A DNA stretch of 46,650 nucleotides from Gammaproteobacteria bacterium. Lineage in GTDB: Bacteria; Pseudomonadota; Gammaproteobacteria; UBA4575. Positions 27,054-45,726 of this stretch are shown here, in pieces. Within the stretch, counting starts at the first letter, position 1. Each line of letters starts with the position of its first letter. The notes beneath the pieces were generated by a model, which was not told the DNA's origin, ran no database searches, and saw only the letters and a program-made list of their open reading frames with translations. The position numbers and the translations under genes were made by a program. The stretch is taken from contig CBFHSW010000070.1 of assembly GCA_965658595.1 (NCBI GenBank), forward strand, positions 1 to 46,650, given 5' to 3'.

Positions 27054-27851
27054 TTAAGTTTTTTTAGCTGTGCCATATATCACTTCATAGGTGGCAGGGT
27101 ATATCCCTAGATTGTGCGCAGAAGCTGGATAGTTTGCTAACATTTTTGAAAATTTTGACTTTCCAAAGAGGCCCTTAGATGAACTTTTATGATGATTCGC
27201 GCCTACCGCCTTCAAATCCCTCAATAAATCGATAGGATGACGATATCCGATCTCGAGCAAAACCGTAGTCAACTCAATCTGTTCAAACCCTGCTATCAAC
27301 AAGGCTTTTTCAATCTCTTGCAAAGCTGCAAAAACGCCCACATGCGCATCCTCGTCAACCGCCCCAAAAGCCTGCCGTAATTCTTTTAAACTATCAGGCC
27401 CAAAAGTCGAGAAAACCAACACCCCATTGTCGTCTAACACCCTTCGACACTCTGAAAATACTGCTGGCAAGTCCTCGCACCACTGCAACATAGAATTACT
27501 CAAGATAAGATCAAAGGATTGATTTTGCAGGGGTAGATGAGCACTGTCTGCACATATGGATGGATGATTGACTGTCTCAGGTTGCTTCTGATTATGTTGG
27601 GCGTAACTCAGCATTGCCAAACTTAGATCAAGCGCAACGTAATACGTATTCTTGTGTTGCAGCAGCAACTTATCCCTACTCAAGCCGGTTCCACTGCCCA
27701 AGTCTAATAGGCGTTTAGCACGATTATCACCTCTAGATATTTGATCTAGGCACTCAAGCGTTAAGTCTATGGCCTGTACCTGCACTTTTGCCGCCGCATC
27801 GTAACTATTCGCCGCACCTGAGAAACATGATTGTATTTTGAATTTATCCAT
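27054..27851 (-). CDS. bioC: malonyl-ACP O-methyltransferase
   Basis: F..AA.SYD..A.VQ N-terminus, LDLGSGTG SAM motif, and LRDLKAVGANHH as in E. coli BioC (LKGIGATHL). It directly follows bioH. An alternative TTG start is at 27866. Confidence 0.85.
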   Translation of the reverse strand: MDKFKIQSCFSGAANSYDAAAKVQVQAIDLTLECLDQISRGDNRAKRLLDLGSGTGLSRDKLLLQHKNTYYVALDLSLAMLSYAQHNQKQPETVNHPSICADSAHLPLQNQSFDLILSNSMLQWCEDLPAVFSECRRVLDDNGVLVFSTFGPDSLKELRQAFGAVDEDAHVGVFAALQEIEKALLIAGFEQIELTTVLLEIGYRHPIDLLRDLKAVGANHHKSSSKGLFGKSKFSKMLANYPASAHNLGIYPATYEVIYGTAKKT

Positions 27852-27856
27852 ATTGC

Positions 27857-28633
27857 TTAAAAGCAAGCCCTCTTAGAATCTAGAAAAGAAGAAATTTGTT
27901 CAGCCACTCGCTGCGGACAGGACAATACCGGTGCATGACCTACCTGTGGCCACGACACCCATTCAGACTTTGATTGTTGGGCAAAATATTCTGCATTATG
28001 ACAATCCACGATGGCATCATCAGCGCCTAGAATAAAGTATTTTGGGCAAGCCAGACTGAGCAGTTGTTCAGAGAAGTCTGTTTCTAACAACTCCAGACCG
28101 ACTTGTAACTCACTCATACTCTGGCTAGAAACATCCTCATATGACCGGAACTGCTTGAGCACTGTTCGTGCATTTTCGTCCCCCACCACCTGTAATGCTT
28201 GAAAACTTTTAATAGTGGAGGCTGGATTAACATCAAAGTTTTTTTTCAATGCCAGATATTTATCAAAATCTATGCCTGAGCGAAGATTATCAGGGCTGAC
28301 AAATTTAGGTGTAGAAGCGATAAAAACAATACTTTTCACACACCTCGGATGACGTGCAGCCAGGCGAATGGCAATCAAGCCACCCATTGACCATGCCAGC
28401 ACATGACTAGCTGATTGATCAGAAGACAGATAATTCTCAGCCAATTTATCCACGTACTCATCTAGCTGTGCCAACGTCCCATGATCACAGGCCTCTTGAC
28501 TCCATGGCGGTATGACATTATTTATCTGGCAACATGTTTCTAATGCTGGAATAATTAAGTCCCATACGTGATGAGAAGAACCCCAACCAGTGAGCAATAA
28601 CAAGTTCTCTTTCATTCTCTGTTGTCCGATCAT
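27857..28633 (-). CDS. bioH: pimeloyl-ACP methyl ester carboxylesterase
   Basis: LLLTGWG, the nucleophile elbow AWSMGG, and FQALQVVGDENAR plus GLELLETD, which parallel E. coli BioH FLALQTMGTETAR and GLEILKTVD. The catalytic His lies in VGHAP. An alternative start is at 28615. Confidence 0.85.
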   Translation of the reverse strand: MIGQQRMKENLLLLTGWGSSHHVWDLIIPALETCCQINNVIPPWSQEACDHGTLAQLDEYVDKLAENYLSSDQSASHVLAWSMGGLIAIRLAARHPRCVKSIVFIASTPKFVSPDNLRSGIDFDKYLALKKNFDVNPASTIKSFQALQVVGDENARTVLKQFRSYEDVSSQSMSELQVGLELLETDFSEQLLSLACPKYFILGADDAIVDCHNAEYFAQQSKSEWVSWPQVGHAPVLSCPQRVAEQISSFLDSKRACF

Positions 28634-28637
28634 TTAA

Positions 28638-29249
28638 TTGAATTTCATGAATATATCAGTCGACCTTATTGCATATGTGATTGCAAGCTATTTGATTGGC
28701 TCCATCTCCTGCGCCATTATTTTTGCAGGCTGGATGAAGTTGCCAGACCCACGGCAATTAGGTTCTGGCAATCCCGGCGCCACCAATATGTTACGCACTG
28801 GGAGTAAAAAAGCCGCCGCTTTAACCCTAGCAGGTGACTTATTGAAAAGCTTACTACCTCTTCTAATCGCGCGCTATTTGAATGTTAATGAAGTGATTCT
28901 ATGTTGGATGGGAGGTGCTGCAATTATTGGTCATATGTATCCCATCTACTACCGATTTCAGGGTGGCAAAGGTGTCGCCACGACACTCGGAGTACTGCTG
29001 GCAATACATTGGCCGCTAGCATTAATCTGGTCAGGAGTATGGGTAAGCATGGCTAAACTATCACGCTATTCATCATTATCTGCACTCACCGCCACCGCCC
29101 TGCTACCCCTGGTCGCATGGAGTCTCGGTCTCTCTATTGAAGTCATCAGCTTACTAGTGATTATTTCAATACTGGTATTTTGGCGCCACCGCAGCAACAT
29201 TACTAAGCTCATTCACGGGCAAGAGAGCCGTATCAGCGGATCAAAATAA
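28638..29249 (+). CDS. plsY: glycerol-3-phosphate acyltransferase PlsY
   Basis: YLIGSISCAII, GSGNPGATN and FQGGKGVAT motifs. Confidence 0.93.
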   Translation: MNFMNISVDLIAYVIASYLIGSISCAIIFAGWMKLPDPRQLGSGNPGATNMLRTGSKKAAALTLAGDLLKSLLPLLIARYLNVNEVILCWMGGAAIIGHMYPIYYRFQGGKGVATTLGVLLAIHWPLALIWSGVWVSMAKLSRYSSLSALTATALLPLVAWSLGLSIEVISLLVIISILVFWRHRSNITKLIHGQESRISGSK

Positions 29250-30275
29250 TCATCTTCGCACTTCATCCAAGGGCCATCTTGGGTACACACGAACTTGTTT
29301 CGCTTCCAGTGTGCGTTTCTCGATAGCATGTAACAAACCCGCGTATGCCACCATCACACCATTGTCTGTGCAGACTTTTAGAGGCGGGAATAATATTTCT
29401 TTCCCCTGATCAGTAAAACCCTTGAATTTTTCACGCAAGGCTTGATTAGCGCTCACACCTCCTGCGATGACTAATGTATTGAGTTCGGTTTGTTGAAAAG
29501 CGCGAGCGCATTTCTCATACAGCGTGTCGACTATTGATGATTGAAACGCATACGCTGTCTCTTCCTGATCATGCTGACTTTGTGATGATTTTTGATAGCT
29601 CAGTAAGGTGTGTGTTTTGAGACCGCTAAAACTAAAGTCCAAACTATCGGCTTCCAACATGGACCTTGGGTATCTCATGGTTTTGTCGACAGCAGAGCGT
29701 GCCAGCTTCTCTATTATGGGCCCTCCGGGATAACCTAAACCCATATGTTTTGACACCTTATCGAATGCTTCACCCACAGCATCATCGCGGCTTTGGCCCA
29801 ATACTTGATAATCACCGAGGGCGCGCGCATGCACAATCAAGGTATGCCCACCCGACACCAGTAATGATAAAAATGGGAATTGTAATTGTTCAGGTGATTT
29901 TTGTGAGGCTTCAAGAAAAGGCACTAATAAATGCGCCTCCATATGATGAACTGGAATCGAAGGCACACCTAAAGCCCACGCTAGCGCCTCTCCAACAGAT
30001 GCCCCGACAAACAAGGCACCAACCAGACCGGGGCCTGCCGTATAAGCCACAGCATCAATGTCTTTAATAGTCAGTGATGCCTCTTGTAAACACGCTTTAA
30101 TCAAGGGCAGGCACTTACGCACATGATCGCGTGAGGCTAATTCAGGGACCACACCCCCATAATCAGCGTGTAATTCGACCTGAGAATAGAGACGTTCTGC
30201 TAGAATTTGCCCACTCTGATCAATGATGGCAATGCCAGTTTCATCACAAGATGACTCAATACCGAGGATTTTCAT
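29250..30275 (-). CDS. tsaD: tRNA N6-adenosine threonylcarbamoyltransferase
   Basis: MKILGIESSCDETGIAI, the HHMEAH metal site and SGGVSAN. It is divergent from rpsU, as is typical. Confidence 0.95.
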   Translation of the reverse strand: MKILGIESSCDETGIAIIDQSGQILAERLYSQVELHADYGGVVPELASRDHVRKCLPLIKACLQEASLTIKDIDAVAYTAGPGLVGALFVGASVGEALAWALGVPSIPVHHMEAHLLVPFLEASQKSPEQLQFPFLSLLVSGGHTLIVHARALGDYQVLGQSRDDAVGEAFDKVSKHMGLGYPGGPIIEKLARSAVDKTMRYPRSMLEADSLDFSFSGLKTHTLLSYQKSSQSQHDQEETAYAFQSSIVDTLYEKCARAFQQTELNTLVIAGGVSANQALREKFKGFTDQGKEILFPPLKVCTDNGVMVAYAGLLHAIEKRTLEAKQVRVYPRWPLDEVRR

Positions 30276-30317
30276 GAGATTTATAGGTTGTTTTTGCTAA
30301 AAATAGCGATTTAAGTG

Positions 30318-30345
30318 TTGAAATCGAGCATGGCACAATTATAAT
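30318..30345 (+). promoter_or_regulatory. candidate sigma-70 promoter for rpsU
   Basis: TTGAAA-N16-TATAAT lies ~127 nt upstream of the rpsU ATG, in the tsaD/rpsU divergent spacer. Motif match only. Confidence 0.4.
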
Positions 30346-30471
30346 CCATCGTCCCATGCGTCCATTGTACGATTCGTGAAAGCTATTTTACGCCAAAAAT
30401 GTTTGCGTAGAATAATTGAATCTCCCTATGGTCACATAATTTAAGCCCCAAACACACGATATTGAGGATTT

Positions 30472-30687
30472 ATGCCTGGAGTAAGAGTTAAAGAAAACGA
30501 GCCATTTGACGTAGCGTTAAGACGCTTCCGTCGTTCATGTGAAAAAGCCAGTGTACTTACAGAAGTACGCCGTCGTGAATTTTATGAAAAGCCCACATCA
30601 GTTCGCAAACGTAAAGCCGCCGCTGCAGTGAAGCGCAACCTCAAGCGCGTATCACGTACATCACTCAAGCGTAAGCGTCTTTACTAG
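30472..30687 (+). CDS. rpsU: 30S ribosomal protein S21
   Basis: [42 protein letters not shown] is nearly identical in pattern to E. coli S21. Confidence 0.97.
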
Positions 30688-30701
30688 ATTTATTATAATT
30701 T

Positions 30702-31157
30702 GTGTCAGACACTAGCCTGAAACAACAGCTCACTGCGGATATGAAATCCGCAATGAAAGCCAAAGATAAACAGCGTCTGACCACCATCCGCTTAATCCTT
30801 TCTGCCCTTAAGCAGGTTGAAGTTGATGAACGTATAGAGGTTGATGATGAGCGTCTAATTATCATTCTCGACAAGATGGCTAAGCAAAGACGTGAATCCA
30901 TCAGCCAATACAAGCAGGCAGGACGTGAGGACTTAGCTGAGATTGAACAGTCTGAGTTAGATATTATCAAGGCCTACCTTCCCGCAGCACTCTCCCAACA
31001 AGAGATTGCACAGTTAGTCGAACAAGCTATTACTGCCACCTCAGCCAGTTCAATGAAAGAGATGGGCAAAGTAATGGCTATGCTCAAGCCTCAACTCCAA
31101 GGTCGAGCTGATATGAGTCAAGTAAGCCAACTCATAAAAAGTCAATTGTCCAACTAG
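30702..31157 (+). CDS. GatB/YqeY domain-containing protein
   Basis: LKQQLTADMKSAMKAKDKQRLTTIRLILSALKQVEVDER is the typical YqeY N-terminus. GTG start, 14 nt after rpsU. Confidence 0.85.
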   Translation: MSDTSLKQQLTADMKSAMKAKDKQRLTTIRLILSALKQVEVDERIEVDDERLIIILDKMAKQRRESISQYKQAGREDLAEIEQSELDIIKAYLPAALSQQEIAQLVEQAITATSASSMKEMGKVMAMLKPQLQGRADMSQVSQLIKSQLSN

Positions 31158-31215
31158 TATTATTGCCTCTAAGACGTCACTATAGAGCGCATTACTCTAC
31201 CTACAGCCATCGCCC

Positions 31216-32283
31216 ATGACCGCGCTTAAAAACGATACTTTCATTCGTGCCCTACTCGGACAGCCGATAGACCACACGCCCATATGGATCATGCGCCAAG
31301 CAGGGCGTTACCTTCCTGAATATCGTGCCACGAGAGAAAAAGCAGGAGACTTCCTGACTTTGTGTAAGACTCCCGAGTTGGCTTGCCAAGTCACCATGCA
31401 ACCACTAGAACGTTTTGACTTGGATGCTGCCATCCTATTTTCAGACATACTGACTATTCCAGATGCCATGGGACTAGGATTAGAATTCCGTGAAGGTGAT
31501 GGACCAGTATTCACTCGCCCAATTCAAAGCTTACGTGACATAAAAAATCTGGCAGTACCTGACCCACATGATGAATTAGATTATGTCATGCAAGCTGTCT
31601 CAACCATACGCAGAGAACTCGATGGTCGTGTGCCATTGATTGGCTTTTCTGGTAGTCCATGGACTCTAGCTACTTACATGGTGGAAGGTGGTTCCTCTAA
31701 AGATTTCGCTAAAATCAAAGGTCTGCTTTACACCAGCCCTAAAGAAACTGAGCACTTGCTTGATATTATTAGTGACAGTGTTGCCAGCTACCTGAATGCA
31801 CAAATTGAAGCTGGCGCCCAAACTGTCATGATATTTGATACATGGGGCGGCACGCTCACACCTGAACATTATCGCTGCTATTCATTGGCACCGATGATAC
31901 GAGCTGTTGAAAAATTGCATCGTGAATATGACGGTGCAACCATACCTGTCATTTTATTCTCTAAGGGAGCTAATCATTCGCTTAATGAGTTAGCCGACTC
32001 AGGTGCTAATGGGGTGGGATTGGATTGGACTATCAATATTAACGATGCCAGCGACATCGTCGGTGACCGTGTCTCTTTACAGGGCAACTTAGATCCTACC
32101 GTGCTTTACAGCACACCTGAGACGGTTATTGAACAAGCCAAGAAAATTCTTGACGCTTACCCTAAGCATAGCGGCCATGTTTTCAATTTAGGGCATGGCA
32201 TACATCCAGGCATCAAACCTGAAAATGTAAAAGCTTTGGTAGACTTCGTTCATCAATATAGCCGCGACCAAAAATCCAGATAA
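31216..32283 (+). CDS. hemE: uroporphyrinogen decarboxylase
   Basis: [34 protein letters not shown] is the canonical HemE N-terminus. 355 aa. Confidence 0.95.
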
Positions 32284-32325
32284 AACACTTCAATCTGCAA
32301 TGACCATGAATGCTGATGGGTGTTT

Positions 32326-34815
32326 TTAAAACAGCTGCTCTATCGGTTTTTGTTCAATTGGTCCTTGGGTATCAGCATCAGTCTCTTGGTTAGTATTAAG
32401 CTGATGACGAGCTGGCACTTGATTAAGCAAGAAAGCTTCTTCAATCCCTTCTTCAAAATCATCATCAACAAGCAACCCTGTATCAGGATGCACTTTCAGC
32501 TGCACCATGTTGTTGGGCAATCGTGTCTGTGTGGAAGGCACACCTTTTAACGCAAAACGCATATAGTCAATCCAAATAGGTAATGCCGCCACTCCACCCG
32601 CTTCCCTGCGTCCCAATGACTGAGGATCATCAAAACCCAACCAAACAACTGTAGCGGCCTGTTTATGAAAGCCCGCAAACCAAGCGTCAGTTTGATCATT
32701 GGTTGTACCTGTCTTACCTGCAATATCTTTACGCTCTAATACTCTGGCTCTACGCCCTGTGCCATATTGGATCACATCATTGAGCATGCTGGTAAGTTGA
32801 TAAATATTTGACTCGCTCACCACACGCGGGGCAAAATCCTGTGGTGGCATGTCAGTGGACACTTGTTCATCAATCAGATCATTCTCCATCTCTGCTTCAG
32901 ATTTGAATTCCGACTCGAATTCTAATTCGAATTCTAATTGTGAGAACTCATTATTAATCTGCATACACTGCGCATCACAAATCACTGCAGGTCTAGCTGT
33001 AAATATGTCGTCTTCTTGAAACTTTTGGATACGCTCGATGAAATAAGGCTGCACCTCATACCCACCATTTGCGATCACACTATATCCTTGTGCTATTTGC
33101 ATCGGTGTCATCGCACTGCTTCCCAGCGCCAGTGTTAGATCATTTGGTAACTGTGCAGTATCAAAACCAAATTTAGCGATGTGTTGCTTGGCAAAAGATT
33201 TGCCGATATCTCTGAGCAGTCTGATTGAGACCATATTACGCGACTTGGTCAAAGCCAAGCGAAGTCGTGTCGGTCCAAAGAACTTGCCAGAATAATTATG
33301 GGGCCGCCAAGCATCTTCTGTTTGCTTGCTCTCAAATACCACTGGTGCATCATTGACTAAACTAGCCGGCGTAAATCCTGCTTCTAATGCTGCTGAATAT
33401 ATAAATGGCTTAAACGAAGAACCCGGTTGTCTGGACGCCTGTATGACACGGTTGAATTTACTATCATAAAAATCAAAACCACCCACTAAAGCCACTACCG
33501 ACCCATCCTCTGGATGAATGGAAACAATCGCACTTGAAGCGGCGGGTTTTTGCCGTAACTGCCAACCCAAATCAGTGTGTTGTACTCGAATCACATCACC
33601 TACTGCCAGCACATTAGTCACTTTTTCTGGTCTAGGTCCAAGTGCATTGACTGACAAATATTCTCTTGCCCACTTAACTGCCTCTAGATCTAGAGTGATG
33701 ATGTTTCGATCTACTATCACCTGAGCTGTAGTTTCATCCACCTGTGTAACAACACCCGGCTGTAAAGGACCAATATCGCTAAACTTACGTATCTGCTCTG
33801 ACAGAAGATCAGGATCTAGCATCACCTCTTGTTCAATTTGCATCTCTGCACCTCGATATCCATGACGCATATCGTAAGCCATCAAACCCGCTTGTAATGC
33901 TCGCACTGCAACTTGTTGTTTGTCTGCATCTATCGTCGTGTAAACGTTATAGCCTACCGAGTAAGCACTCTCTCCATAGGTCTCCACCATATACGCTCTT
34001 ACCATCTCACCGATATAAGGAGCATCTACCTCTACATTAATAGAGTGTTTTCGCGCCACAATGGGGGCATCCAGAAATTCCTGGTATTGCTGTTGTGTAA
34101 TCATTTTCAACTTATTCATGCGACCTAAAACATAGTCACGACGAATTTTTGCACGCTTGGCATTAGTCACAGGATTATAAGCAGAGGGAGCTTTAGGTAA
34201 ACCGGCGATCATAGCCAGCTGAGGAATTGTCAATTCTTGTATGGTTTTGCCGTAATAGACCTCAGCAGCCGCGCCCACACCATAAGCACGTTGTCCTAGG
34301 TATATTTTATTTAGATATAGCTCAAGGATTTCATTCTTAGATAGTGTTTTTTCAATTCTCAGGGCCAACAAGATTTCTTTTATCTTGCGTGAATAAGTTC
34401 GTTCTGGAGTGAGAAAGAAATTTCTCGCCAATTGCATAGTAATAGTGCTGCCACCTTGCACCTTACGGCCAGTCATAATCAAATTAAGACCCGCTCTGAT
34501 GATGCCTTGGTAATCAACACCCGGATGTGAATAAAAACGATCATCCTCTGCCGCCAAGTAGGCATTGACCAAATGAGCGGGCATTTCTTCATAAGAAACA
34601 GGAATTCTGCGTTTTTCACCAAACACTGCGATCAATTTTCCATCACGACTGAACACCTTAAGCGGTGTCTGTAGCTGCACATCTTTGAGTGTTTCCACTG
34701 ACGGTAATTGTTGTGAGTAAAAAACCACTACGGCCGCTGCTAGACCAATAATAGCGACAGACAGGATTAGAAACCGGATAAAAGCCGTTTTGAGAGCGCT
34801 CAAAGACAATGACAT
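32326..34815 (-). CDS. mrcA: penicillin-binding protein 1A (bifunctional glycosyltransferase/transpeptidase)
   Basis: GT51 motifs AAEDDRFYSHPG, GGSTITMQL and RKIKE. Transpeptidase motifs SSFK (SxxK) and KTGTT. N-terminal TM anchor. 829 aa. Confidence 0.93.
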   Translation of the reverse strand: MSLSLSALKTAFIRFLILSVAIIGLAAAVVVFYSQQLPSVETLKDVQLQTPLKVFSRDGKLIAVFGEKRRIPVSYEEMPAHLVNAYLAAEDDRFYSHPGVDYQGIIRAGLNLIMTGRKVQGGSTITMQLARNFFLTPERTYSRKIKEILLALRIEKTLSKNEILELYLNKIYLGQRAYGVGAAAEVYYGKTIQELTIPQLAMIAGLPKAPSAYNPVTNAKRAKIRRDYVLGRMNKLKMITQQQYQEFLDAPIVARKHSINVEVDAPYIGEMVRAYMVETYGESAYSVGYNVYTTIDADKQQVAVRALQAGLMAYDMRHGYRGAEMQIEQEVMLDPDLLSEQIRKFSDIGPLQPGVVTQVDETTAQVIVDRNIITLDLEAVKWAREYLSVNALGPRPEKVTNVLAVGDVIRVQHTDLGWQLRQKPAASSAIVSIHPEDGSVVALVGGFDFYDSKFNRVIQASRQPGSSFKPFIYSAALEAGFTPASLVNDAPVVFESKQTEDAWRPHNYSGKFFGPTRLRLALTKSRNMVSIRLLRDIGKSFAKQHIAKFGFDTAQLPNDLTLALGSSAMTPMQIAQGYSVIANGGYEVQPYFIERIQKFQEDDIFTARPAVICDAQCMQINNEFSQLEFELEFESEFKSEAEMENDLIDEQVSTDMPPQDFAPRVVSESNIYQLTSMLNDVIQYGTGRRARVLERKDIAGKTGTTNDQTDAWFAGFHKQAATVVWLGFDDPQSLGRREAGGVAALPIWIDYMRFALKGVPSTQTRLPNNMVQLKVHPDTGLLVDDDFEEGIEEAFLLNQVPARHQLNTNQETDADTQGPIEQKPIEQLF
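32905..32940. repeat. three tandem 12-bp units (GAATTC-containing) inside mrcA, encoding an acidic EFELEFESEF insert
   Basis: The plus strand reads gaattccgactc gaattctaattc gaattctaattg. On the coding strand this gives QLEFELEFESEF within the stretch EFSQLEFELEFESEFKSEAEMENDLIDEQ. Confidence 0.7.
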
Positions 34816-34977
34816 AGGACTAAAATAACTAAAAGTTCATGAGTGAGTAGTGTGACAAACAATTTGCCACAAAGTGCTTTTTATCACGAATCAAAAAAAC
34901 TCTCATCAACTATCAAGCGATGAGATGGAAATATAAAAATAAAATATAGATAAAACCCATAACTATAGGAAAGTTCA

Positions 34978-35052
34978 GTGTTTAACATCGGTCAATCTCA
35001 ACAACCCACTTTGGGCATTGATATCAGCACTAGTTGCATCAAAGTGTTACAA
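34978..35052 (+). pseudogene. pilM: pilM 5' remnant (type IV pilus assembly ATPase-like protein PilM, first ~25 codons)
   Basis: The GTG frame reads VFNIGQSQQPTLGIDISTSCIKVLQ, matching the PilM N-terminus (..TLLGIDISSTSVKLLEL..). Similarity then stops, and the frame terminates at 35149-35151 after 57 codons. Confidence 0.75.
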
Positions 35053-35060
35053 CCATCGCC

Positions 35061-35201
35061 ACATCAAAAGTGCCATTCTTTGGGGACTTACCGATTGCAG
35101 GAAGATTATTCAGAAATGAGAGTAAAAGTAATAATAAAAAAGAATTACTGATCTTCATGACCCCTAAAATAATCGATGAAGAATTAAACATCACGCTTTA
35201 A
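35061..35201 (+). pseudogene. pilQ: pilQ 3' remnant (secretin C-terminal ~45 codons, no start codon)
   Basis: A different frame reads TSKVPFFGDLPIAGRLFRNESKSNNKKELLIFMTPKIIDEELNITL*. This is the secretin C-terminal signature VPxLGDIPxxGxLF...ELLIFxTPxI. The stop lies 80 nt before aroK. Confidence 0.8.
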
Positions 35202-35280
35202 TCCAAAATCATCACATAAAACGCCCTGCGCTGATGGATTTTTTTGTTTAAAATGATATCAAATCATTCAATGCACAATT

Positions 35281-35808
35281 ATGCGCAAACACATCATCTT
35301 AATTGGCCCAATGGGTGCGGGGAAATCTTCGCTCGGTAAACGACTCGCCAAACGGCTAGATTGCCCTTTTTATGATAGTGACCATTTTCTGGAAGAGCGC
35401 ACTGGTGTCAAAATCACTACCATCTTTGAATTAGAGGGCGAAGATGGATTTCGTACACGCGAACACAATATGCTGGAAGAACTACTAACACATGATGCAG
35501 GAGTGATTGCTACCGGTGGAGGAATCGTCACCCATGACAGAAATCATATTATTCTTAGACAAGCGGACAATATCGTTATTTACCTGGTGGCCTGTGTAGA
35601 CTCTCAACTTAAACGCACCTCACATGACAAATCACGTCCTCTGCTTCAAACACCTGATCGTCATGCTAAACTGCAATCATTGGCCCAACAGCGCAGTCCT
35701 TTGTATGAACAGTTTGCAGACATCATTATCGATACTGACAAACAAAACATCAATCGATCTATCGACTTAATCATGCAACAACTTAAGCGATTAAAGCTTC
35801 TGAGTTAA
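35281..35808 (+). CDS. aroK: shikimate kinase
   Basis: ILIGPMGAGKSSLGKRLA P-loop, DSD, and GGG in the lid region. 175 aa. Confidence 0.95.
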   Translation: MRKHIILIGPMGAGKSSLGKRLAKRLDCPFYDSDHFLEERTGVKITTIFELEGEDGFRTREHNMLEELLTHDAGVIATGGGIVTHDRNHIILRQADNIVIYLVACVDSQLKRTSHDKSRPLLQTPDRHAKLQSLAQQRSPLYEQFADIIIDTDKQNINRSIDLIMQQLKRLKLLS

Positions 35809-35860
35809 AACCAAGATCACATCACCATTAGCCACTAAGTATTACTAATCAATAGACTCT

Positions 35861-36952
35861 ATGGAAACACTTACGGTACAACTCAATACACGCTCATACC
35901 CAATCTATATTGGGGAAGATATTCTCGAACGTGACAATCTCATCAGTCAACACATCAAAAGTCAGCGTGTCGTCATTATCAGTAATGAAACGGTTGCACC
36001 TTTATATCTGACACCATTAAAAAATGCTCTCAAGGCATTTGAATGCCATGAGATTATTTTACCTGATGGTGAGCAGTACAAAAACATGCTGACCTTGGAA
36101 ACTATATTTGATGCGCTTTTGGAACAACGCTGTCCACGCGATGCAACCATAGTTGCTCTCGGCGGCGGTGTGATTGGAGATATTACTGGTTTTGCTGCTG
36201 CCTGCTATCAACGTGGCGTCGACTTCATACAAGTCCCGACTACATTATTATCACAAGTGGATTCATCCGTCGGAGGTAAAACAGGCATCAATCATACCCT
36301 GGGTAAAAATATGATCGGGGCATTTTATCAACCGCAATGTGTGATAGCAGATATTCATACACTACAGAGTTTACCCCCACGTGAATTAAGCGCCGGTATA
36401 GCAGAAGTCATTAAATATGGATTATTGGGTGATAAAGATTTTTTTAACTGGCTAGAAAACAATATGTCCAGCCTAATGCAGCTGGATAGTGCTGCCGTGA
36501 CTTATGCCATACAGACTTCATGTCAGTGTAAGGCAGACATCGTTGCCAGCGACGAGCAAGAAAAAAGCGGCCGTCGTGCATTATTGAATTTAGGGCACAC
36601 CTTTGGACATGCTATTGAAACAGGCATGGGCTATGGCACCTGGTTACATGGTGAGGCCGTAGCTTGCGGGATGGCTGTGGCCGCTGAGTTTTCTGCCCGC
36701 TTAGGGTGGTTAGCTGATGATGACGTAGTCAGAATTAAACACGTACTGGAAAGCGCACATCTTCCTGTAGCGATACCACAACAATTAAGTGCAGAACAAA
36801 TGCTAGATTTAATGGCACTCGACAAAAAAGTACAAGCAGGCAAACTTAATCTGATTCTGCTAACAAAAATCGGGGAGGCAGTAATGACTCATGAGTATGA
36901 TCAAGCATTACTATTAGCCATGTTAACTGACTTAACTTCATCAACAAATTAA
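35861..36952 (+). CDS. aroB: 3-dehydroquinate synthase
   Basis: GGGVIGDITGFAAA, VPTTLLSQVDSSVGGKTGINH and the LNLGHTFGHAIE metal site. Confidence 0.95.
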   Translation: METLTVQLNTRSYPIYIGEDILERDNLISQHIKSQRVVIISNETVAPLYLTPLKNALKAFECHEIILPDGEQYKNMLTLETIFDALLEQRCPRDATIVALGGGVIGDITGFAAACYQRGVDFIQVPTTLLSQVDSSVGGKTGINHTLGKNMIGAFYQPQCVIADIHTLQSLPPRELSAGIAEVIKYGLLGDKDFFNWLENNMSSLMQLDSAAVTYAIQTSCQCKADIVASDEQEKSGRRALLNLGHTFGHAIETGMGYGTWLHGEAVACGMAVAAEFSARLGWLADDDVVRIKHVLESAHLPVAIPQQLSAEQMLDLMALDKKVQAGKLNLILLTKIGEAVMTHEYDQALLLAMLTDLTSSTN

Positions 36953-36956
36953 GCCT

Positions 36957-38099
36957 ATGGCCTCCCTGTCACTAGCGCCGTATGCTGTTACACAACAACA
37001 CTCCATAGGACGAGATACGTCCGAGATCTCATGTAATACTCGCTCAGAATTTCAAAGAGATAGAGACCGCATTATTCACTGTACAGCATTCCGACGCTTG
37101 GAATATAAAACTCAGGTCTTTATCAATCATGAAGGGGATTTGTATCGCACTCGTTTAACCCACTCTCTTGAGGTAGCACAGATTGCACGCTCCATTGCTC
37201 GTGCTTTGCTACTGAATGAAGATCTCACAGAAGCCATTGCTCTTGCCCATGATGTCGGTCATACACCATTTGGACATGCAGGACAGGATGCACTCAATCA
37301 TTGCATGCGAGAATATGGTGGCTTCGAACATAATTTTCAGTCTTTACGTGTGGTAGAACATCTAGAAGAAAAGTACCCTGAGTTCGATGGGTTGAATTTA
37401 ATGTTTGATACACGCGAGGGCATACTCAAACATTGCTCATTGAAAAATGCACGACATATGGGCGCTCTGGGTCAACGCTTCATTGATAGAACTCAACCTA
37501 GTCTGGAAGCACAACTGACCAACATTGCCGATGAAATAGCCTATAACAACCATGATGTTGATGACGGTCTGCGTTCCGGTCTAATCTCAATTCAACAGCT
37601 CAGAGAATGCAGCTTATTTGCCTCCCACTTTGAATCTGTTGAGAATCAATATCCCGGCTTATCCGATAAAAGAAAAGCTCAAACTGTGATACGTAACATG
37701 ATAGATCGTTGTGTGACCGATTTAATTGAGACCACTCAAAATAATATTACACAGCAAGAAATAAAAAGTATTGAGGATGTGCGTAACAATAACCAACCAC
37801 TGGCTGGCTTCAGTCCAGAAATAAAAACCCAGATTGTCGAGCTCAAATCATTTCTCCACAGCAACCTCTACCAACATGAACAGGTTGCGGCTATGAGTCT
37901 TAATGCTAAAACAACTATTAGCACTTTATTTGATGGCTTTTTTGAGGACAGCGCCTTACTGCCCCAAGAGCATCAAAAAAAGGCATTACACAAACAACAA
38001 AATCAAGGGGTTGATGGATATGCGCGTGTGATTTCAGACTATATTGCCGGCATGACCGACCGATATGCACAAGCTGAATACCAGCGCTTGAAAACTTAA
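36957..38099 (+). CDS. dgt: dGTP triphosphohydrolase-like HD-domain protein
   Basis: FQRDRDRIIHCTAFRRLEYKTQVF, RLTHSLEVAQI and LAHDVGHTPFGH. It starts 4 nt after aroB. Confidence 0.85.
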   Translation: MASLSLAPYAVTQQHSIGRDTSEISCNTRSEFQRDRDRIIHCTAFRRLEYKTQVFINHEGDLYRTRLTHSLEVAQIARSIARALLLNEDLTEAIALAHDVGHTPFGHAGQDALNHCMREYGGFEHNFQSLRVVEHLEEKYPEFDGLNLMFDTREGILKHCSLKNARHMGALGQRFIDRTQPSLEAQLTNIADEIAYNNHDVDDGLRSGLISIQQLRECSLFASHFESVENQYPGLSDKRKAQTVIRNMIDRCVTDLIETTQNNITQQEIKSIEDVRNNNQPLAGFSPEIKTQIVELKSFLHSNLYQHEQVAAMSLNAKTTISTLFDGFFEDSALLPQEHQKKALHKQQNQGVDGYARVISDYIAGMTDRYAQAEYQRLKT

Positions 38100-38103
38100 C
38101 TGC

Positions 38104-39021
38104 ATGGCTATCCAGCAACAAACAAGTTCTCTCTCTGTGCAGCAACTCAGAGCATTGGGTTTAAAACACGACCCCTTCTCATCACAAGTCGATGCAGATT
38201 CTCTCTACACAGACAGTCATCTTGAGATGATAGTGAATGTTATCCTGCAATCTCTTAAAGGAAACAATCAATCAATTGTGTTACTTGCTGAACGCGGCTT
38301 GGGAAAAACCACTCTTCTACGCAAAATATTACAACTCACCTATTCAGAATTTAAATCTTGCGCAATTCGTGCTACCGATACTCTTAGCTTTGAGGATGTA
38401 TGTGAGAAATTAAAAACCAAATGGAACGTGGGTGAGTCTTCATCCTCGGCATTAAACCTGAGCATTGAAAACCATCTCATCTGTTATTTAGAGCATCATC
38501 CCAAGTGTTGCTTGATTATTGATGATGCACATAGCATAGACATGGCCTGTCTTACCCAACTGTTTAACCTCAAAAGCCGACTTGATCAAACTCATCCGCA
38601 TTCGCTATTTTTTATTTTTGCGGGTGAAGCAGGCTTGAAACTGAAAATGATTCATTTGGATGAAAACACTGATTGTGACTGTGATCATTATCAAATTAAT
38701 GTGCGCCCGTTAAATCGCCAACAAACCACAGATTACATACAATATCGTATTAATCGTTGCATGATAGAACCTGAGACTTCTGCACAGACCATACTAGACT
38801 CAAGCCTCTGCGATGAAATCTATGCAAAGTCACAGGGTAATTTTGACCAAATACATGCATTAGGTACGGTCTCTTTAAAGCAACGTTTTGAACAACCAAA
38901 CTCATATTCCACATACGACTCACGAGCTCTGACGCAATACTTCTCAAAAAGACTGATTATTGTCCTAGCGCTATTAGTCACCTCTCTGTTGCTTTTATTT
39001 TCACCCTTCGTAAATTTTTAA
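38104..39021 (+). CDS. ExeA/GspA/MshM-like AAA ATPase ending in a single TM helix
   Basis: LGLKHDPF...DSLYTDSHLE leader, Walker A AERGLGKTT, Walker B CCLIIDDAH, and a C-terminal hydrophobic helix LIIVLALLVTSLLLLFSPF followed within 4 aa by the stop. Confidence 0.6.
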   Translation: MAIQQQTSSLSVQQLRALGLKHDPFSSQVDADSLYTDSHLEMIVNVILQSLKGNNQSIVLLAERGLGKTTLLRKILQLTYSEFKSCAIRATDTLSFEDVCEKLKTKWNVGESSSSALNLSIENHLICYLEHHPKCCLIIDDAHSIDMACLTQLFNLKSRLDQTHPHSLFFIFAGEAGLKLKMIHLDENTDCDCDHYQINVRPLNRQQTTDYIQYRINRCMIEPETSAQTILDSSLCDEIYAKSQGNFDQIHALGTVSLKQRFEQPNSYSTYDSRALTQYFSKRLIIVLALLVTSLLLLFSPFVNF

Positions 39022-39103
39022 CCAGCCTGCTGACACACCTATTGACAAGACAAACGCATCCAGTAGCCTCTACTAACATTACATAACACCTTAGCGATTG
39101 ACT

Positions 39104-40771
39104 ATGGCGGGTAAAATCCCACAAACCTTCATTGATCAAGTTGTCAACCAAACAGATATTGTTGATCTCATTGATAGCTACATCGATCTGAAGCCTAAAG
39201 GCAAAGAATATACGGCCTGCTGCCCATTCCATGGAGAAAAAACACCTTCATTCACGGTCAACCGAGAAAAGCAGTTTTATCACTGTTTTGGTTGCGGAGC
39301 GCATGGTACCGCCATAGGCTTTTTGATGGAGCACGAAGGTTTAGAATTTGTTGAAACCATAGAAGTACTCGCTCAACGTCTAGGGTTGGAAGTCAGCTAT
39401 GAAAAAGGCAGTCAAAAAAATGAGGGTTTATCCGACTTATATGCGGCACTAGAAAAGGCCAGTCATTATTATCAGCAACAACTCAGAAAACAACCTGAGG
39501 CAATAGACTATCTAAAGTCTCGCGGTATTACGGGTGCTGTTTCACAGCGTTTTAATATCGGTTTTGCACCACCGGGTTTTGACAACCTCAAAAAACACTT
39601 GGACATAAAACCACCCGTATTCATTAAAGCGGGCTTACTCAGTGAGAAATCACCCACCAAAATCTATGACCGCTTTCGTCATCGCATTATGTTTCCCATC
39701 AAAGATCCTCGCGGACGTGTCATTGCATTTGGTGGACGTGAAATTGATGGTAGTATGCCCAAATATATCAATAGCCCTGAGACTGATTTGTTTCATAAAG
39801 GCAGCACTTTATATGGGCTTTATGAAGCACGCCAAGCTTTAGGCAAAATAAAATCGCTGTTAATTGTAGAAGGCTATATGGATGTTGTAGCGCTCGCCCA
39901 ACACGGCGTGGACAACGCTATCGCTACTCTAGGAACTGCGACCACTAGTCAGAATATTCGCAATCTATTGCGTTACACGTCCAGTTTGATTTTTTGTTTT
40001 GATGGTGACCGAGCTGGTAAAGATGCCGCTTGGAAAGCACTGGAACAAATATTGCCAGAGTATAAAGATGGAATAGACATTCGCTTTGCCTTCATGCCAC
40101 AAGGGGAAGATCCTGATTCCTTGATTCGATCTGCAGGACAGCAGGCATTTCAAGGACATCTTGATAAAGCCTTACCCCTATCTGAATACTTTTTCACTAA
40201 ATTATCGGCAGAGGTCGACACTAGTTCGTTAGACGGAAAAGCAAAACTCGCCAATTTGGCTCAACCACTAATCAGCAAAATCCCAAAAATTGTATTCAGA
40301 GACTTAATGCTGAAAGAACTCAATGTGCGTGTAGGCGCCTCTATTTCCGCTCCTCATGCTGGCTCTAACTCAAGTGCGAATTCGTCTCCCTACTCGATCC
40401 CATCTGGTCAGCAAAAACGCACCCCTAAGTACACCAAAACACGCCTGGCAGTAGCATTATTATTGCGAGAACCTCAACTGGCTGAATACGCACTCGATGA
40501 AGAACAATTAAGCCAGCTACAATCTACACCTGGCATACCACTTCTAATTGAGCTATTAAATATTATTCAAATGGAACCAAGCCTCACCTCAAGTGCTCTA
40601 ATAGAGCGTTTTCATGGTCGAGACGAATACCCAATATTAAAGAAGTTGATCATGTGGGAATTGCCAGACATGAACAATCGAGAGCATTCATTTCGACAAA
40701 CTATGCAGCGTTTTCTTGAAGATATCCGTAAAAAAGAATTTGATGATTTAATCAATTCTGACCTAAGTTAG
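39104..40771 (+). CDS. dnaG: DNA primase
   Basis: Zinc-binding CPFHGEKTPSFTV...YHCFGCGAHG, and TOPRIM motifs EGYMDV and FDGDRAG. The ATG at 39104 is preferred over the TTG at 39098. Confidence 0.95.
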   Translation: MAGKIPQTFIDQVVNQTDIVDLIDSYIDLKPKGKEYTACCPFHGEKTPSFTVNREKQFYHCFGCGAHGTAIGFLMEHEGLEFVETIEVLAQRLGLEVSYEKGSQKNEGLSDLYAALEKASHYYQQQLRKQPEAIDYLKSRGITGAVSQRFNIGFAPPGFDNLKKHLDIKPPVFIKAGLLSEKSPTKIYDRFRHRIMFPIKDPRGRVIAFGGREIDGSMPKYINSPETDLFHKGSTLYGLYEARQALGKIKSLLIVEGYMDVVALAQHGVDNAIATLGTATTSQNIRNLLRYTSSLIFCFDGDRAGKDAAWKALEQILPEYKDGIDIRFAFMPQGEDPDSLIRSAGQQAFQGHLDKALPLSEYFFTKLSAEVDTSSLDGKAKLANLAQPLISKIPKIVFRDLMLKELNVRVGASISAPHAGSNSSANSSPYSIPSGQQKRTPKYTKTRLAVALLLREPQLAEYALDEEQLSQLQSTPGIPLLIELLNIIQMEPSLTSSALIERFHGRDEYPILKKLIMWELPDMNNREHSFRQTMQRFLEDIRKKEFDDLINSDLS

Positions 40772-40886
40772 GCTTTTGTCACCTAGTTGCGGGTATTTAT
40801 ACCCTATACATCTCATTTGGTAGGTGTGTGATATGAGAAAAACGATTATAATGAGAGGTTTAACCCAATAATTCATTTATATCTCT

Positions 40887-42725
40887 ATGGAACCAGAATC
40901 TACTAACGAACAACAAAATCAAGGTTACAGCCTTAAGAACTTGATTGCTAAAGGTAAGGAACAGGGTTACCTCACCTATGCCGAGGTGAACGACCACCTG
41001 CCCAATTCAATTGTAGATCCTGAGCAGATCGAAGATATCATCAGCATGATCAACGACATGGGTATAGTCGTGCATGAACAAGCACCTGATGAGCAATCCT
41101 TATTGATGTCTGAAACCGCCGCCACAGATGAAGATGTGGCGGAAGAAGCGGCCGCCGCATTAGCCTCTGTCGATAGTGAATTTGGTAGAACCACCGACCC
41201 CGTACGTATGTATATGCGTGAAATGGGCACCGTCAATTTGTTGACGCGTGAAGGTGAGATTAAAATTGCTAAGCGTATTGAAGAGGGGCTCGCTCAAGTT
41301 TTACTTGCGATAGGCCACTATCCGCGCTCAATTGAACAGTTATTACTTCTATATGCAAAAGTAGAAGGCGAAGAAATGCGCCTCACTGATTTAATCACGG
41401 GATTTATAGATCCAGATGCAGAAGATGAAATTTCCACTCCTACGGTTATCAATCAAGCTGACAGCAACAATCAAGATGATAAAGATGATGACGAAGAAGA
41501 GGAGGAAGTAGACACAGGGCCAGATCCAGAAGAGGCTCGTGAGCACTTTGAAGAACTTGCTGCTTTGTACAAAAAATCACAATCAGCGACGGTACAAAAA
41601 AGTCCCAAGAAATTGCTTGAGGCAAGAACAGCAGTTGCTGAGTACTTCATGCGCTTAAAGCTGAATCAAAAAATTATCGATGCACTAACAGCTAATCTAA
41701 GAACTACCGTCGAAGGCATCCGTAATCATGAACGCTTAATCATGGCGTTATGTGTCAATTACTCAGGTATGCCAAAGAAAAACTTTGTTGAGTCTTTTAC
41801 TGAAAATGCGACCAACAGCGAATGGATAGCTGATGTCATCAAGAAGAAATCAAAATTCTCTGAAGCGCTACTCGAAGTTCAAGAAGAAGTAGTCAAAGAA
41901 CAGAATAAACTAGGCGTGATTCAAACCAACTCTAAACTCACCATTGCTGAGATAAAAGAGATCAATCGCCGCATGTCCATTGGTGAAGCAAAAGCACGCC
42001 GTGCCAAGAAAGAAATGGTGGAAGCTAATTTACGACTGGTGATTTCCATTGCCAAAAAATATACCAATCGCGGACTGCAATTCTTAGACCTTATTCAAGA
42101 GGGTAATATCGGCCTTATGAAGGCTGTGGATAAATTTGAATATCGTCGTGGCTATAAATTCTCAACCTATGCGACATGGTGGATTCGACAAGCGATCACA
42201 CGATCAATCGCTGATCAAGCACGCACTATTCGTATTCCGGTGCACATGATTGAGACTATCAATAAACTTAATCGTATCTCACGTCAGATGTTGCAAGAGA
42301 TGGGACGAGAAGCCACACCTGAAGAATTGGCTGAGCGCATGGAGATGCCTGAGGATAAAGTGCGTAAAGTGCTTAAGATTGCCAAAGAGCCTATCTCTAT
42401 GGAAACGCCCATTGGTGATGATGAAGATTCTCATCTAGGTGACTTTATTGAAGATGCCAATATAGAATCTCCAGTGGAAGCTGCCTCCGGTGTTGGCCTG
42501 AGTGAAGCAACACGTGAAATACTTGCCTCACTGACACCACGAGAAGCAAAAGTATTAAGGATGCGTTTTGGTATTGATATGAATACTGATCATACTCTAG
42601 AAGAAGTTGGCAAACAGTTTGACGTAACACGCGAACGCATACGTCAAATCGAAGCTAAAGCTTTACGTAAACTTCGTCACCCAACTCGTTCAGAGCAGTT
42701 ACGTAGTTTCTTGGAACTGGAATAA
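40887..42725 (+). CDS. rpoD: RNA polymerase sigma-70
   Basis: Acidic region 1, [56 protein letters not shown], and region 4 [28 protein letters not shown]. Confidence 0.97.
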
Positions 42726-42738
42726 AATTTATCCCCCC

Positions 42739-42769
42739 ATAGCATATTAATACCCTATTAATATGCTAT
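42739..42769 (+). terminator. perfect 14-bp AT-rich hairpin after rpoD (possible terminator or processing element)
   Basis: ATAGCATATTAATA-ccc-TATTAATATGCTAT lies 14 nt after the rpoD stop. It has no clear T-run, so intrinsic terminator function is uncertain. Confidence 0.35.
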
Positions 42770-42808
42770 ATATATGATGAAATAAATAACGCATCAAACA
42801 CACTATTA

Positions 42809-42885
42809 GGGCCTGTAGCTCAGTTGGTTAGAGCAGGGGACTCATAATCCCTTTGTCGTAGGTTCGAGTCCTACCGGGCCCACCA
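42809..42885 (+). tRNA. ileX: tRNA-Ile2 (anticodon CAU, lysidine type); elongator tRNA-Met not fully excluded
   Basis: A 77-nt cloverleaf: acceptor GGGCCTG/CGGGCCC, D arm GCTC/GAGC, anticodon arm GGGGA-CTCATAA-TCCCT, T arm GTAGG-TTCGAGT-CCTAC, and an encoded CCA. C4, C5 and the G27-U43 pair match E. coli ileX rather than metT. ileX also follows rpoD in E. coli. Confidence 0.85.
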
Positions 42886-42961
42886 ATTCATATTCACCGC
42901 ATAATTCTATAGTACTGATTAGCTTAAGTTTTTAACTTGCTGCTATGAGGTATGTTAGACA

Positions 42962-43606
42962 ATGCGGAAGACAATCAGTAATCCACCCTATACTTTTACT
43001 AAGCGCGGCATCTATTACTTCACTCGTTTAGTTCCACTGAACATTCGTCATCACTATAAACAACCAAGAATTGTTTAGTCACTCAGAGCACGCTCAAGGA
43101 AAGACGCAGCAAAACATTCAAAGTCATTCACATACAACTAGATATTTACTGATCAGAACTTAGAATTAATCAGCATGATATCCCCTGCTCTAGCTTTCTA
43201 TTAAGTCAGCTCACTGTGAAGTCACGCGACTCATGGCAAATGCCATATGTTCATACAGCCACATAGGCGCAGACTACATAAAACTAGAAGTTCTGAACGA
43301 GTCATCCCATTGGTGTGCGCATCACTCTGGTCAGCACAAAGAATTAAACAGAATGTTACTGGAGAATATTGTTTTCCACATTACACCAAAAACGATAGAA
43401 CCAATGTTAACAGTGCCAGCGCAGCATTGAATAAGTGGATAAAGGTATTAACTAAGCATAAAGACAATACAATTCACGGTTTGAGGTACGTACTTGATGA
43501 CAGATTACGTGCTGATGACCAAGGCTGTCAGCAGGTGAATCATATTGTGCAGGATAGACTTTATCGAAGTAACAGGAAGGGTTTGCTAGCAATGCTTAAA
43601 TTATAG
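42962..43606 (+). pseudogene. decayed tyrosine site-specific integrase (phage/genomic-island type)
   Basis: N-terminal MRKTISNPPYTFTKRGIYYFTRLVPLNIRHHYKQPRIV has an in-frame TAG at 43076. It continues SLRARSRKDAAK, then shifts frame to QLDIY-TGA(43150)-SELRINQHDIP. The catalytic-domain piece reads LKTRSSERVIPLV...NSASAALNKWIK...HGLRYVLDDRLRA. The total of ~215 codons, against ~400 expected, implies internal deletion. Confidence 0.8.
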
Positions 43607-43683
43607 TACTCTGAGATCACTGAGTGTGTGCCTTTCATGCCACCTAATTATTCTCTAAGATAAACAATAGAGGAGAACAAATT

Positions 43684-43893
43684 ATGAAACTTAATAAAGA
43701 CAACCTACTTGGCTTCAGTAATGGAGCAGCTCTACAAAAACCGATGATTGGTGGTAAAAGCCCACAAATTGAAATTGACGATGATATGCTACAGGTAGAT
43801 TTTCAGGATGATTTAGATTCTGATGAAATGAGTAATATAGCTGATAATACTGGACAAACAGATTCGGACAATTCAGAAATCGCCCAACCCTAA
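43684..43893 (+). CDS. hypothetical small acidic protein (69 aa)
   Basis: GAGGAG lies 8 nt upstream of the ATG. The C-terminal half is very acidic (EIDDDMLQVDFQDDLDSDEMS...DSDNSE). I recognise no family. Confidence 0.45.
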   Translation: MKLNKDNLLGFSNGAALQKPMIGGKSPQIEIDDDMLQVDFQDDLDSDEMSNIADNTGQTDSDNSEIAQP

Positions 43894-43896
43894 GCC

Positions 43897-44058
43897 ATGA
43901 ATACGAGTCAACGTGCACTAGCATGGATAGCTTTATCTGTCATTAATTGGATCGCATTAGTCCCAGTTACGTTTGGTTCAATACAAGATACTGAGGTCAT
44001 TATTTGGTTTGCTATAACTACCTTGTTGGGTTTCTTTCTATTTAGAACAAAGAAATAG
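43897..44058 (+). CDS. hypothetical 53-aa two-TM membrane peptide
   Basis: Hand translation gives MNTSQRALAWIALSVINWIALVPVTFGSIQDTEVIIWFAITTLLGFFLFRTKK*. The ATG is 3 nt after the upstream stop, suggesting coupling. Not in the ORF track. Confidence 0.35.
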   Translation: MNTSQRALAWIALSVINWIALVPVTFGSIQDTEVIIWFAITTLLGFFLFRTKK

Positions 44059-44388
44059 TCATAACCATTGTAACGATCGGACTGTTAAGAATGTTGCTAA
44101 GATGGAACAGACTAGCTTCATGACTTCATCCCAAGTGTTGATAAGATGCATGAAACTGTCTCTTTGCTACAAGCAACGACAGCCGCTATGTCACTAATTC
44201 TTGCCATAAGTTTATTACTATCAGAGTCTATGCATTCTTCGATAGTTCACCTGATTCTCTCTTTTTGAGTGTTCAGTTGTAAGTCTTGGAGAGACTTTTA
44301 TATTTAAGAGCTCTCATATGTTCATACTGTATGACTTTGTGATCTAAGTTATTTTTCTCTACTCTGCCATAAATAAATTTGCAGCTGT

Positions 44389-44949: not shown

Positions 44950-45256
44950 ACATCTCCTTAAAGATTACTCGAATAACATCTGAATAAATAACGCTTCACT
45001 CATGATAATCTAAAACCTCTCAGGAATATTCCATAAATTAATAATTAATTAATATTATTATCTATTTAATCAATAAATATAAGGCTTATAGTGCTTGATC
45101 AGGCGTCTCAGGGTGATCAGACTCGATCGAAAATACCTGCGAGAATATTCTTAGATAATATGGGCAATAAGATGCGTTGCTGATGCTAGATAGACTAGCG
45201 ATATGCGTTGTAGTGACAGCTGATTTTTTACAACCTTAGTGTTTGCAAACTATACT

Positions 45257-45724: not shown

Positions 45725-45726
45725 AA

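Follow-up and report, generated by a model that had tools for sequence, protein, structure and literature searches.

A deletion scar of the pilMNOPQ operon between ponA and aroK, one of a series of independent losses in uncultured Thiotrichales

Introduction

In Pseudomonas- and Acinetobacter-type genomes, the type IV pilus genes pilMNOPQ lie between a divergently oriented ponA gene and aroK-aroB, and in Escherichia coli the order is a divergent mrcA followed by hofMNOPQ-aroK-aroB. PilM, PilN, PilO, PilP, and the PilQ secretin are each required for the surface pili of type IVa systems. In Pseudomonas, type IV pili are known to have been lost in parallel both in the laboratory and in the clinic, for instance in P. 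aeruginosa pil mutants arising under phage selection and during chronic infection.

Here, we describe the ponA-aroK interval of a 46,650-nt stretch of DNA (referred to as the window, with positions counted from its first letter), which belongs to a clade of uncultured marine and estuarine Thiotrichales. A sequence-only reading of the window had interpreted this interval as a scar in which the 5' end of pilM is fused to the 3' end of pilQ. We consider it very probable that the spacer is a recent, lineage-specific pseudogene scar and one of at least eight independent deletions of the operon in the clade, and for these losses we infer a selective cause. Such a scar is by itself an ordinary kind of feature, the pseudogene remnant of a known operon in the canonical ponA/aroK context. 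It belongs to a natural set of parallel losses that is unusually clear, and we found no report in the literature of an environmental allele series of this kind at the pilMNOPQ locus.

Results

Direct re-reading of the window bore out the layout described earlier, with 465 nt (34816-35280) between the PBP1A start and the aroK ATG, and profile searches confirmed the identity of both neighbors. The left boundary is ponA (32326-34815, minus strand), which is divergent from pilM and encodes an 829-aa PBP1A with Pfam Transgly, PCB_OB, and Transpeptidase domains and an 800-bit match to the NCBIfam MrcA model. To the right lie aroK (35281-35808, plus strand; Pfam SKI, E 2e-51; NCBIfam AroK), encoding shikimate kinase, and aroB (35861-36952, plus strand; Pfam DHQ_synthase and DHQS_C), encoding 3-dehydroquinate synthase. 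No repeat, transposase, or insertion sequence (IS) element was found in the ponA-aroK spacer, and profile searches of the open reading frames detected no pilA, pilB, pilC, pilD, pilT, or other pil gene within the 46-kb window. An Rfam search of the locus at a permissive threshold returned only subthreshold noise (asponA inside ponA, and SCARNA7). The asponA match, to an RNA antisense to ponA, is weak (21 bits against a gathering score of 113; E 7.5e-4) and falls in the ponA 5' coding region (34534-34723, plus strand).

Public genomes and metagenomes were searched with aroK, ponA, and the PilQ fragment, and the contigs encoding the matches were then compared. The window and its relatives share a conserved gene order, tsaD-rpsU-yqeY-hemE-ponA on one side and, beyond the divergent spacer or pil operon, aroK-aroB-HD hydrolase-AAA_22-dnaG-rpoD on the other. 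A full pilM-N-O-P-Q operon lies between ponA and aroK, in the same place as the 465-nt spacer of the window, in the contigs L043, L050, L051, L038, L039/L040, and L045, so that the ponA-pilMNOPQ-aroK-aroB order assumed in the sequence-only reading was found intact in relatives with matching synteny. Three of these intact contigs (L043, L050, and L051) share 94 to 95% nucleotide identity with the window, and the two ponA genes of the window and L043 are 94% identical. The nearest relative with an intact operon, L043, belongs to another species (about 95% identity), and the parental junction sequences given below are therefore those that we infer from it.

The intact operon of the clade measures about 4.3 kb and has the gene order and flanks of its Pseudomonas and Acinetobacter counterparts, with the PilM N terminus and the secretin C-terminal motif conserved. 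In contrast to those systems, the PilQ proteins of the clade are short (463 to 472 aa; STN, Secretin_N, and Secretin domains) and lack AMIN domains, and the window keeps only 28 + 46 codons of the operon.

Several irregular gene calls were noted among the relatives. P0139 and P0142, which fall in the cluster of the L043 PilQ (P0002) and so in the sister lineage of the window, are a 332-aa PilQ whose frame is lost after about 280 residues and a 347-aa PilQ truncated at the N terminus; these forms could be further lesions or the effect of contig edges or sequencing. The ponA gene of L051 (526-2852) and the pilQ genes of L048 (6339-8248) and L047 are called as two or three pieces, which may be due either to genuine frameshifts or to errors in long-read or low-coverage assemblies. 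P0024 of L047 was considered as another truncated secretin and discarded as a sequencing error, its contig being of low coverage ("4x") with several genes split. The uninformative P0027 of L046, which starts 81 nt from a contig end, was left out.

The spacer contains two short coding remnants. The first begins with a GTG at 34978, preceded by a Shine-Dalgarno-like AGGAAA, and belongs to a 57-aa frame that reads (V/M)FNIGQSQQPTLGIDISTSCIKVLQPSP... and stops at 35149-35151. This frame yielded no Pfam or NCBIfam match in profile searches because it is too short; in BLASTP, its peptide was identical to residues 1 to 28 of L043 PilM at 25 of 28 positions (E 8e-15), and the corresponding L043 gene (7177-8259) carries the PilM_2 domain (Pfam PF11104). 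The N-terminal ..TLGIDIS.. segment, the position beside ponA, and the same upstream intergenic DNA all agree with a pilM start. The pilM remnant (34978-35061, plus strand) comprises the GTG start and 28 codons, which are all that is PilM derived: past 35061, the frame runs on out of frame to its stop, and the complete actin-like ATPase fold of PilM (about 355 aa) is absent.

The pilQ remnant (35062-35201, plus strand) consists of the last 46 codons, or 47 when the shared GCC codon at 35058-35060 is counted, and the stop at 35199-35201. Its peptide matches the very end of the Pfam Secretin profile (PF00263, positions 124 to 169 of 169; E 8.8e-14; 51.9 bits against a cutoff of 27.5), and its best NCBIfam match is to the end of the PilQ model TIGR02515 (positions 384 to 427 of 428; E 4e-15), with a score of 55.6 bits against a whole-protein cutoff of 284. 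Against the 470-aa P0002, 48 of 50 positions are identical over residues 421 to 470 (E 1e-31). This secretin half of the spacer is a match far beyond chance, and it ends in the C-terminal motif ...SKVPFFGDLPIAGRLFRNESKSNNKKELLIFMTPKIIDEELNITL*, in agreement with the secretin pattern VPxLGDIPxLGxLF...ELLIFxTPxI. No in-frame start is inherited from pilQ, and with 46 to 47 of about 470 codons left, the signal peptide, the N-domains, and the complete secretin domain of a functional full-length PilQ are absent. The two stumps lie in different reading frames. Both frames thus match significantly at the termini that had been proposed for them from the letters alone, the N terminus of PilM and the C terminus of PilQ, and they are out of frame with each other, as had also been proposed.

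Alignment of the window with L043 by BLASTN produced two colinear segments, 27796-35061 with L043 1-7260 (94.1% identity) and 35050-45112 with L043 11262-21410 (91.8%; range, 91.8 to 94.6%). A single gap separates them; intact orthologues occupy the corresponding place in relatives, the flanking DNA is colinear to the left and right of the gap, and the spacer thus has the form of a deletion scar. What is missing from the window relative to L043 is 4,013 bp, from pilM codon 29 to pilQ codon ~423. The single deletion suggested by the sequence-only reading is supported by this comparison; its size, put there at about 5 kb, is not, because PilQ is short in this clade.

The two BLASTN segments overlap in a 12-nt junction zone (35050-35061, plus strand), in which a three-line alignment gives an imperfect 9/12 match: the pilM parent reads CAACTATCGCCA, the pilQ parent reads CAACCACAGCCA, and the window reads CAACCATCGCCA. 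Beyond this zone, TGTG follows CAACTATCGCCA in the pilM parent and CATC follows CAACCACAGCCA in the pilQ parent; the window reads CAACCATCGCCACATC. The tetranucleotide GCCA at 35058-35061 is common to both parents, and the crossover would most simply be placed within it. The C at 35054 fits the pilQ parent and not the pilM parent, both parents being reconstructed from L043. An earlier estimate of the junction, 35053-35060, overlaps the shared tetranucleotide and lies in the ambiguity zone. With a short shared sequence of which one copy is kept, and no IS element or site-specific recombination site, the junction has the features of a microhomology-mediated deletion.

The same operon has been deleted repeatedly with differing breakpoints, and we distinguished at least eight junction types in four lineages. 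Allele A (L028 and L033) keeps pilM through its stop codon and about 273 C-terminal codons of pilQ and lacks everything from pilN to the 5' half of pilQ; its deletion spans 2.3 kb, its pilM contains a nonsense codon, and the copy in L033 (form A2) has lost a further 16 bp. Retained pilM codons and C-terminal pilQ codons number 179 and about 18 in allele B (L029), 137 and 104 in allele C (L032), 66 and 113 in allele D (L030 and L035), 14 and 143 in allele E (L031), 45 and 38 in allele F (L002), and 28 and 46 in allele G (the window and L027). Allele D forms an in-frame fusion of 179 aa. Allele H, present on 9 contigs (L041 and L042), joins about 166 pilM codons to about 225 pilQ codons in an in-frame 396-aa fusion (P0013).

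Microhomologies at the junctions amount to 10 bp in D (AAAAGCAGTA), 5 to 7 bp in C, 2 bp in E, 2 bp in F, and 4 bp in G, and no mobile element or repeat was involved at the allele junctions examined. Known microhomology-mediated deletions (RecA-independent, slipped-strand, or illegitimate) likewise have single junctions with 2 to 10 bp shared, loss of the intervening DNA, and no mobile element; the mechanism here is no different, and it is the number of independent events at one locus that is unusual. Alleles A, A2, E, and H were each recovered on several contigs that come from different data sources, and alleles B, C, and F are represented by one contig each. Since alleles B, C, D, and E each keep sequence that the others lack, none of them can be the parent of another, and the same holds for F and G.

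We then used aroK plus 4.2 kb of downstream DNA for a tree and an identity matrix of the carriers. The window groups with the intact L043 (95%), and L002, the carrier of allele F, groups with the intact L038 (97.3%; 96% within the spacer remnants). Carriers of alleles A to E form one group whose members are 99.8 to 100% identical to each other, and allele H belongs to a distant lineage. A 3.2-kb contig, L049, contains an intact pilP-pilQ-aroK segment and is 99.5 to 99.8% identical to the A-E contigs over the shared DNA, which means that intact and deleted alleles coexist in a single species-level population. This population, with flanks that are 99.5 to 100% identical, harbors five junction types, one secondary 16-bp deletion, and the intact allele of L049. 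Judged by the sequence identities, intact and deleted alleles also coexist within the L038/L002 species. A raised density of single-nucleotide polymorphisms (SNPs) in the remnants was considered and rejected, as diversity in the remnants is about equal to that in the flanks.

Several contigs of these populations break exactly at the locus, with an overlap of exactly 55 nt between L004 and L002; such breaks would fit the response of an assembler to coexisting alleles. They also bear on the idea that the junction is an assembly artefact or chimera and that the real genome has the operon, since contigs related to the window (L001, L002/L004, L028, L033, and L034) break there and L001 has an N-gap and a spurious 120-nt insert. 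The junction of the window, however, is present in L027, an independently assembled JGI metagenome contig that is 99.67% identical to the window over 1.5 kb and differs by 5 SNPs, which shows that it did not arise by accident during assembly. Other alleles turn up repeatedly in different samples and sources, a microhomology of 4 bp is too short to mislead a k-mer assembler, and coexisting alleles would themselves produce contig breaks of this type, all of which makes an artefact exceedingly improbable. Behind the pilQ stop region, L001 itself (MAG contig CAYPHQ010000045, 580-710) carries a gap of 10 Ns, then some 120 nt that are unrelated and a second copy of the pilQ tail, an arrangement that probably arose as an artefact of scaffolding across the polymorphic locus.

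The timing of the losses was approached through the substitutions in the remnants. For the A-E group, the pilQ remnant compared with the intact L038 gene over 270 codons has a dN/dS of 0.043 at a dS of 0.52, against 0.063 at a dS of 0.54 for aroB as a reference and a baseline of 0.014 to 0.036 for intact-versus-intact pilQ. The pilM remnant of the same group, compared with L038 over 179 codons, has a dN/dS of 0.17, and intact-versus-intact pairs range from 0.14 to 0.18. In the window, the 46-codon pilQ tail encodes the same amino acids as that of L043 (P0002), with 5 synonymous and 0 nonsynonymous differences (dS 0.20; flanks, 0.2 to 0.27). By our own estimate, in which roughly one-fifth to one-fourth of sites are synonymous, neutrality would yield five out of five with a probability near 0.001. 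For the scar of the window, the case for recency covers only 46 + 28 codons. The substitutions in the remnants are not a neutral mix, which indicates that in each lineage the operon stayed functional and under selection until shortly before it was deleted. The losses are thus both recent and independent. A single ancestral deletion common to all lineages was ruled out: the alleles are not mutually derivable, intact alleles lie inside the same species-level groups, and the remnants have a low dN/dS.

These data also speak to whether the scar was formed in more than one step, with a smaller, A-like deletion (pilN to the 5' half of pilQ) coming first and a second one then trimming pilM and pilQ to the present junction. 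The short alleles B to G are all geometrically nested within A, allele A is common, and secondary lesions do occur, as on allele A in L033. Nevertheless, the window shows a single junction, its own lineage yielded no intermediate allele, and the purely synonymous differences in its pilQ tail speak against an extended period as a pseudogene. We therefore regard a stepwise origin of the scar as unlikely and a single deletion as the better description of allele G.

A different question is why the operon was lost. Multiple recent, independent loss alleles of genes under purifying selection, as found here, are a pattern expected of adaptive loss through phages or cost. A neutral cause is a possibility that we hold to be real but doubtful: the pilus would already have been useless, through a change of lifestyle or the earlier loss of another pil gene, and the operon would have been eroded in sublineages by deletion bias and drift. 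Stepwise decay is indeed apparent in allele A (the 2.3-kb deletion, the pilM nonsense codon, and the extra 16 bp in L033), the deletions are near maximal, as expected from the purging of useless DNA, and a large population with relaxed selection and deletion bias could give a similar picture. On the other hand, the genes of the intact alleles L043, L050, L038, and L049 are uninterrupted, a dN/dS in the remnants as low as that of housekeeping genes implies that purifying selection had acted in all three lineages up to a very recent time, and five junction types at no more than 0.5% divergence are a lot for pure drift.

All eight alleles keep both intergenic regions of the locus. The first, the divergent ponA-pilM region (34816-34977), is presumed to contain promoter or regulatory DNA for ponA and/or pilM; within it, the block at 34871-34913 (AAAGTGCTTTTTA...AAACTCTCA..AACTAT) shows almost no variation across all lineages, relatives with flanks of about 62% identity included, and presumably represents shared regulatory DNA. 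The second, the pilQ-aroK region (35202-35280, plus strand), contains TTTTTGTTTAAAATGA (35241-35256), 25 to 40 nt upstream of the aroK start, which is invariant in L002, L030, L038, L039, L043, L045, and the window with flanks down to about 62% identity. A -10-like hexamer, TAAAAT (35249-35254), lies within it, 26 nt upstream of the aroK ATG, and the element is a candidate that may be the promoter or a regulatory element of aroK itself. A consensus promoter and terminator scan of 34600-35500 found no site in the spacer and no full sigma-70 promoter. Between the pilQ stop and aroK, no significant terminator was detected, the hairpin after the pilQ stop being no better than shuffled sequences (z -0.95). 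It is plausible, as the sequence-only reading had supposed, that the retained ends keep aroK-aroB transcribed, a proposal that the promoter and terminator scans neither support nor refute.

The uniform retention of these ends raises the possibility that the stumps were kept for a function, either as a leader through which transcription from the pilM promoter would reach aroK-aroB or, where the stumps are joined in frame (alleles D and H), as a novel fusion protein. Every allele does keep the pilM promoter region, the start codon, at least 14 pilM codons, and at least about 18 pilQ codons, the absence of a significant terminator before aroK would suit a leader, and two of the eight alleles are in frame. 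Two in eight is, however, the chance expectation, and the H fusion is substituted in the most conserved secretin motifs (GDSPFAG and ELQIF). The kept lengths vary freely, from 14 to 179 codons of pilM and from 18 to 273 codons of pilQ, so no specific stump sequence seems to be required, and the invariant -10-like motif beside aroK means that this gene probably has its own promoter. A function for the stumps is therefore very unlikely in our view. Most simply, the boundaries of the deletions would be set by the need to spare the control regions of ponA and aroK.

Three further features of the window and its relatives were recorded. A 395-aa open reading frame (5899-7086, minus strand) combines most of a fatty acid desaturase domain (residues 10 to 225) with an internal fragment of an ISL3-family transposase (residues 296 to 386) and may be another rearrangement or deletion scar. 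The AAA_22 (ExeA-like) protein encoded downstream of aroB and the HD hydrolase (38104-39021, plus strand) has 305 aa in the window and close relatives, and its homologue in the distant L041, L042, L047, and L048 has 534 to 536 aa with a C-terminal SPOR domain. At the right end of the window (43000-46650), the G+C content is 0.37, versus about 0.43, and the open reading frames at 43247-43606, 45257-45724, and 45727-46644 have no Pfam match.

Discussion

For the scar in the window, we propose that one illegitimate, microhomology-mediated deletion of 4,013 bp would have joined pilM codon 28 to pilQ codon ~424. What was lost is pilM beyond codon 28, the whole of pilN, pilO, and pilP, and 90% of pilQ, and both intergenic regions that serve ponA and aroK were spared. 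With pilMNOP and the secretin gone, the lineage lacks what this locus contributes to the pilus at either membrane, the alignment complex of the inner one and the secretin of the outer one. From what is established for type IVa systems, its cells should be unable to form surface pili from the locus, to twitch, to take up DNA through pili, or to adsorb pilus-dependent phages, unless a second system is encoded elsewhere.

Because near-complete deletions have arisen repeatedly and are present at detectable frequency in a near-clonal population, loss seems to be favored. Repeated loss of the secretin machinery might most plausibly have been favored by escape from pilus-dependent phages or by the saving of cost, with nearly all of the dead DNA then being removed. 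Whether selection for loss is strong and ongoing is a more tentative matter: the locus might well reflect a natural "soft sweep" of many microhomology deletions, most plausibly driven by pilus-dependent phages, and we offer this as a reading that is possible but short of probable. Closely related cells of P. aeruginosa have likewise undergone repeated, independent inactivation of their type IV pili. Our series differs in that it comes from uncultured environmental populations and always involves large pilM-to-pilQ deletions.

Taken alone, the scar means that the strain cannot build type IV pili from this locus, with consequences for its movement on surfaces, its uptake of DNA, and the ease with which pilus-dependent phages infect it. 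The allele series extends further, as a replicated, sequence-level record of how a multigene machine is lost in nature, with its breakpoints, microhomologies, and follow-up decay. It also delimits the regulatory DNA that ponA and aroK must keep; if the soft-sweep reading is true, the series of breakpoints would amount to a natural deletion map of the DNA that these two genes need. Finally, the series provides a testable case for phage- or cost-driven selection against the pilus in planktonic bacteria.
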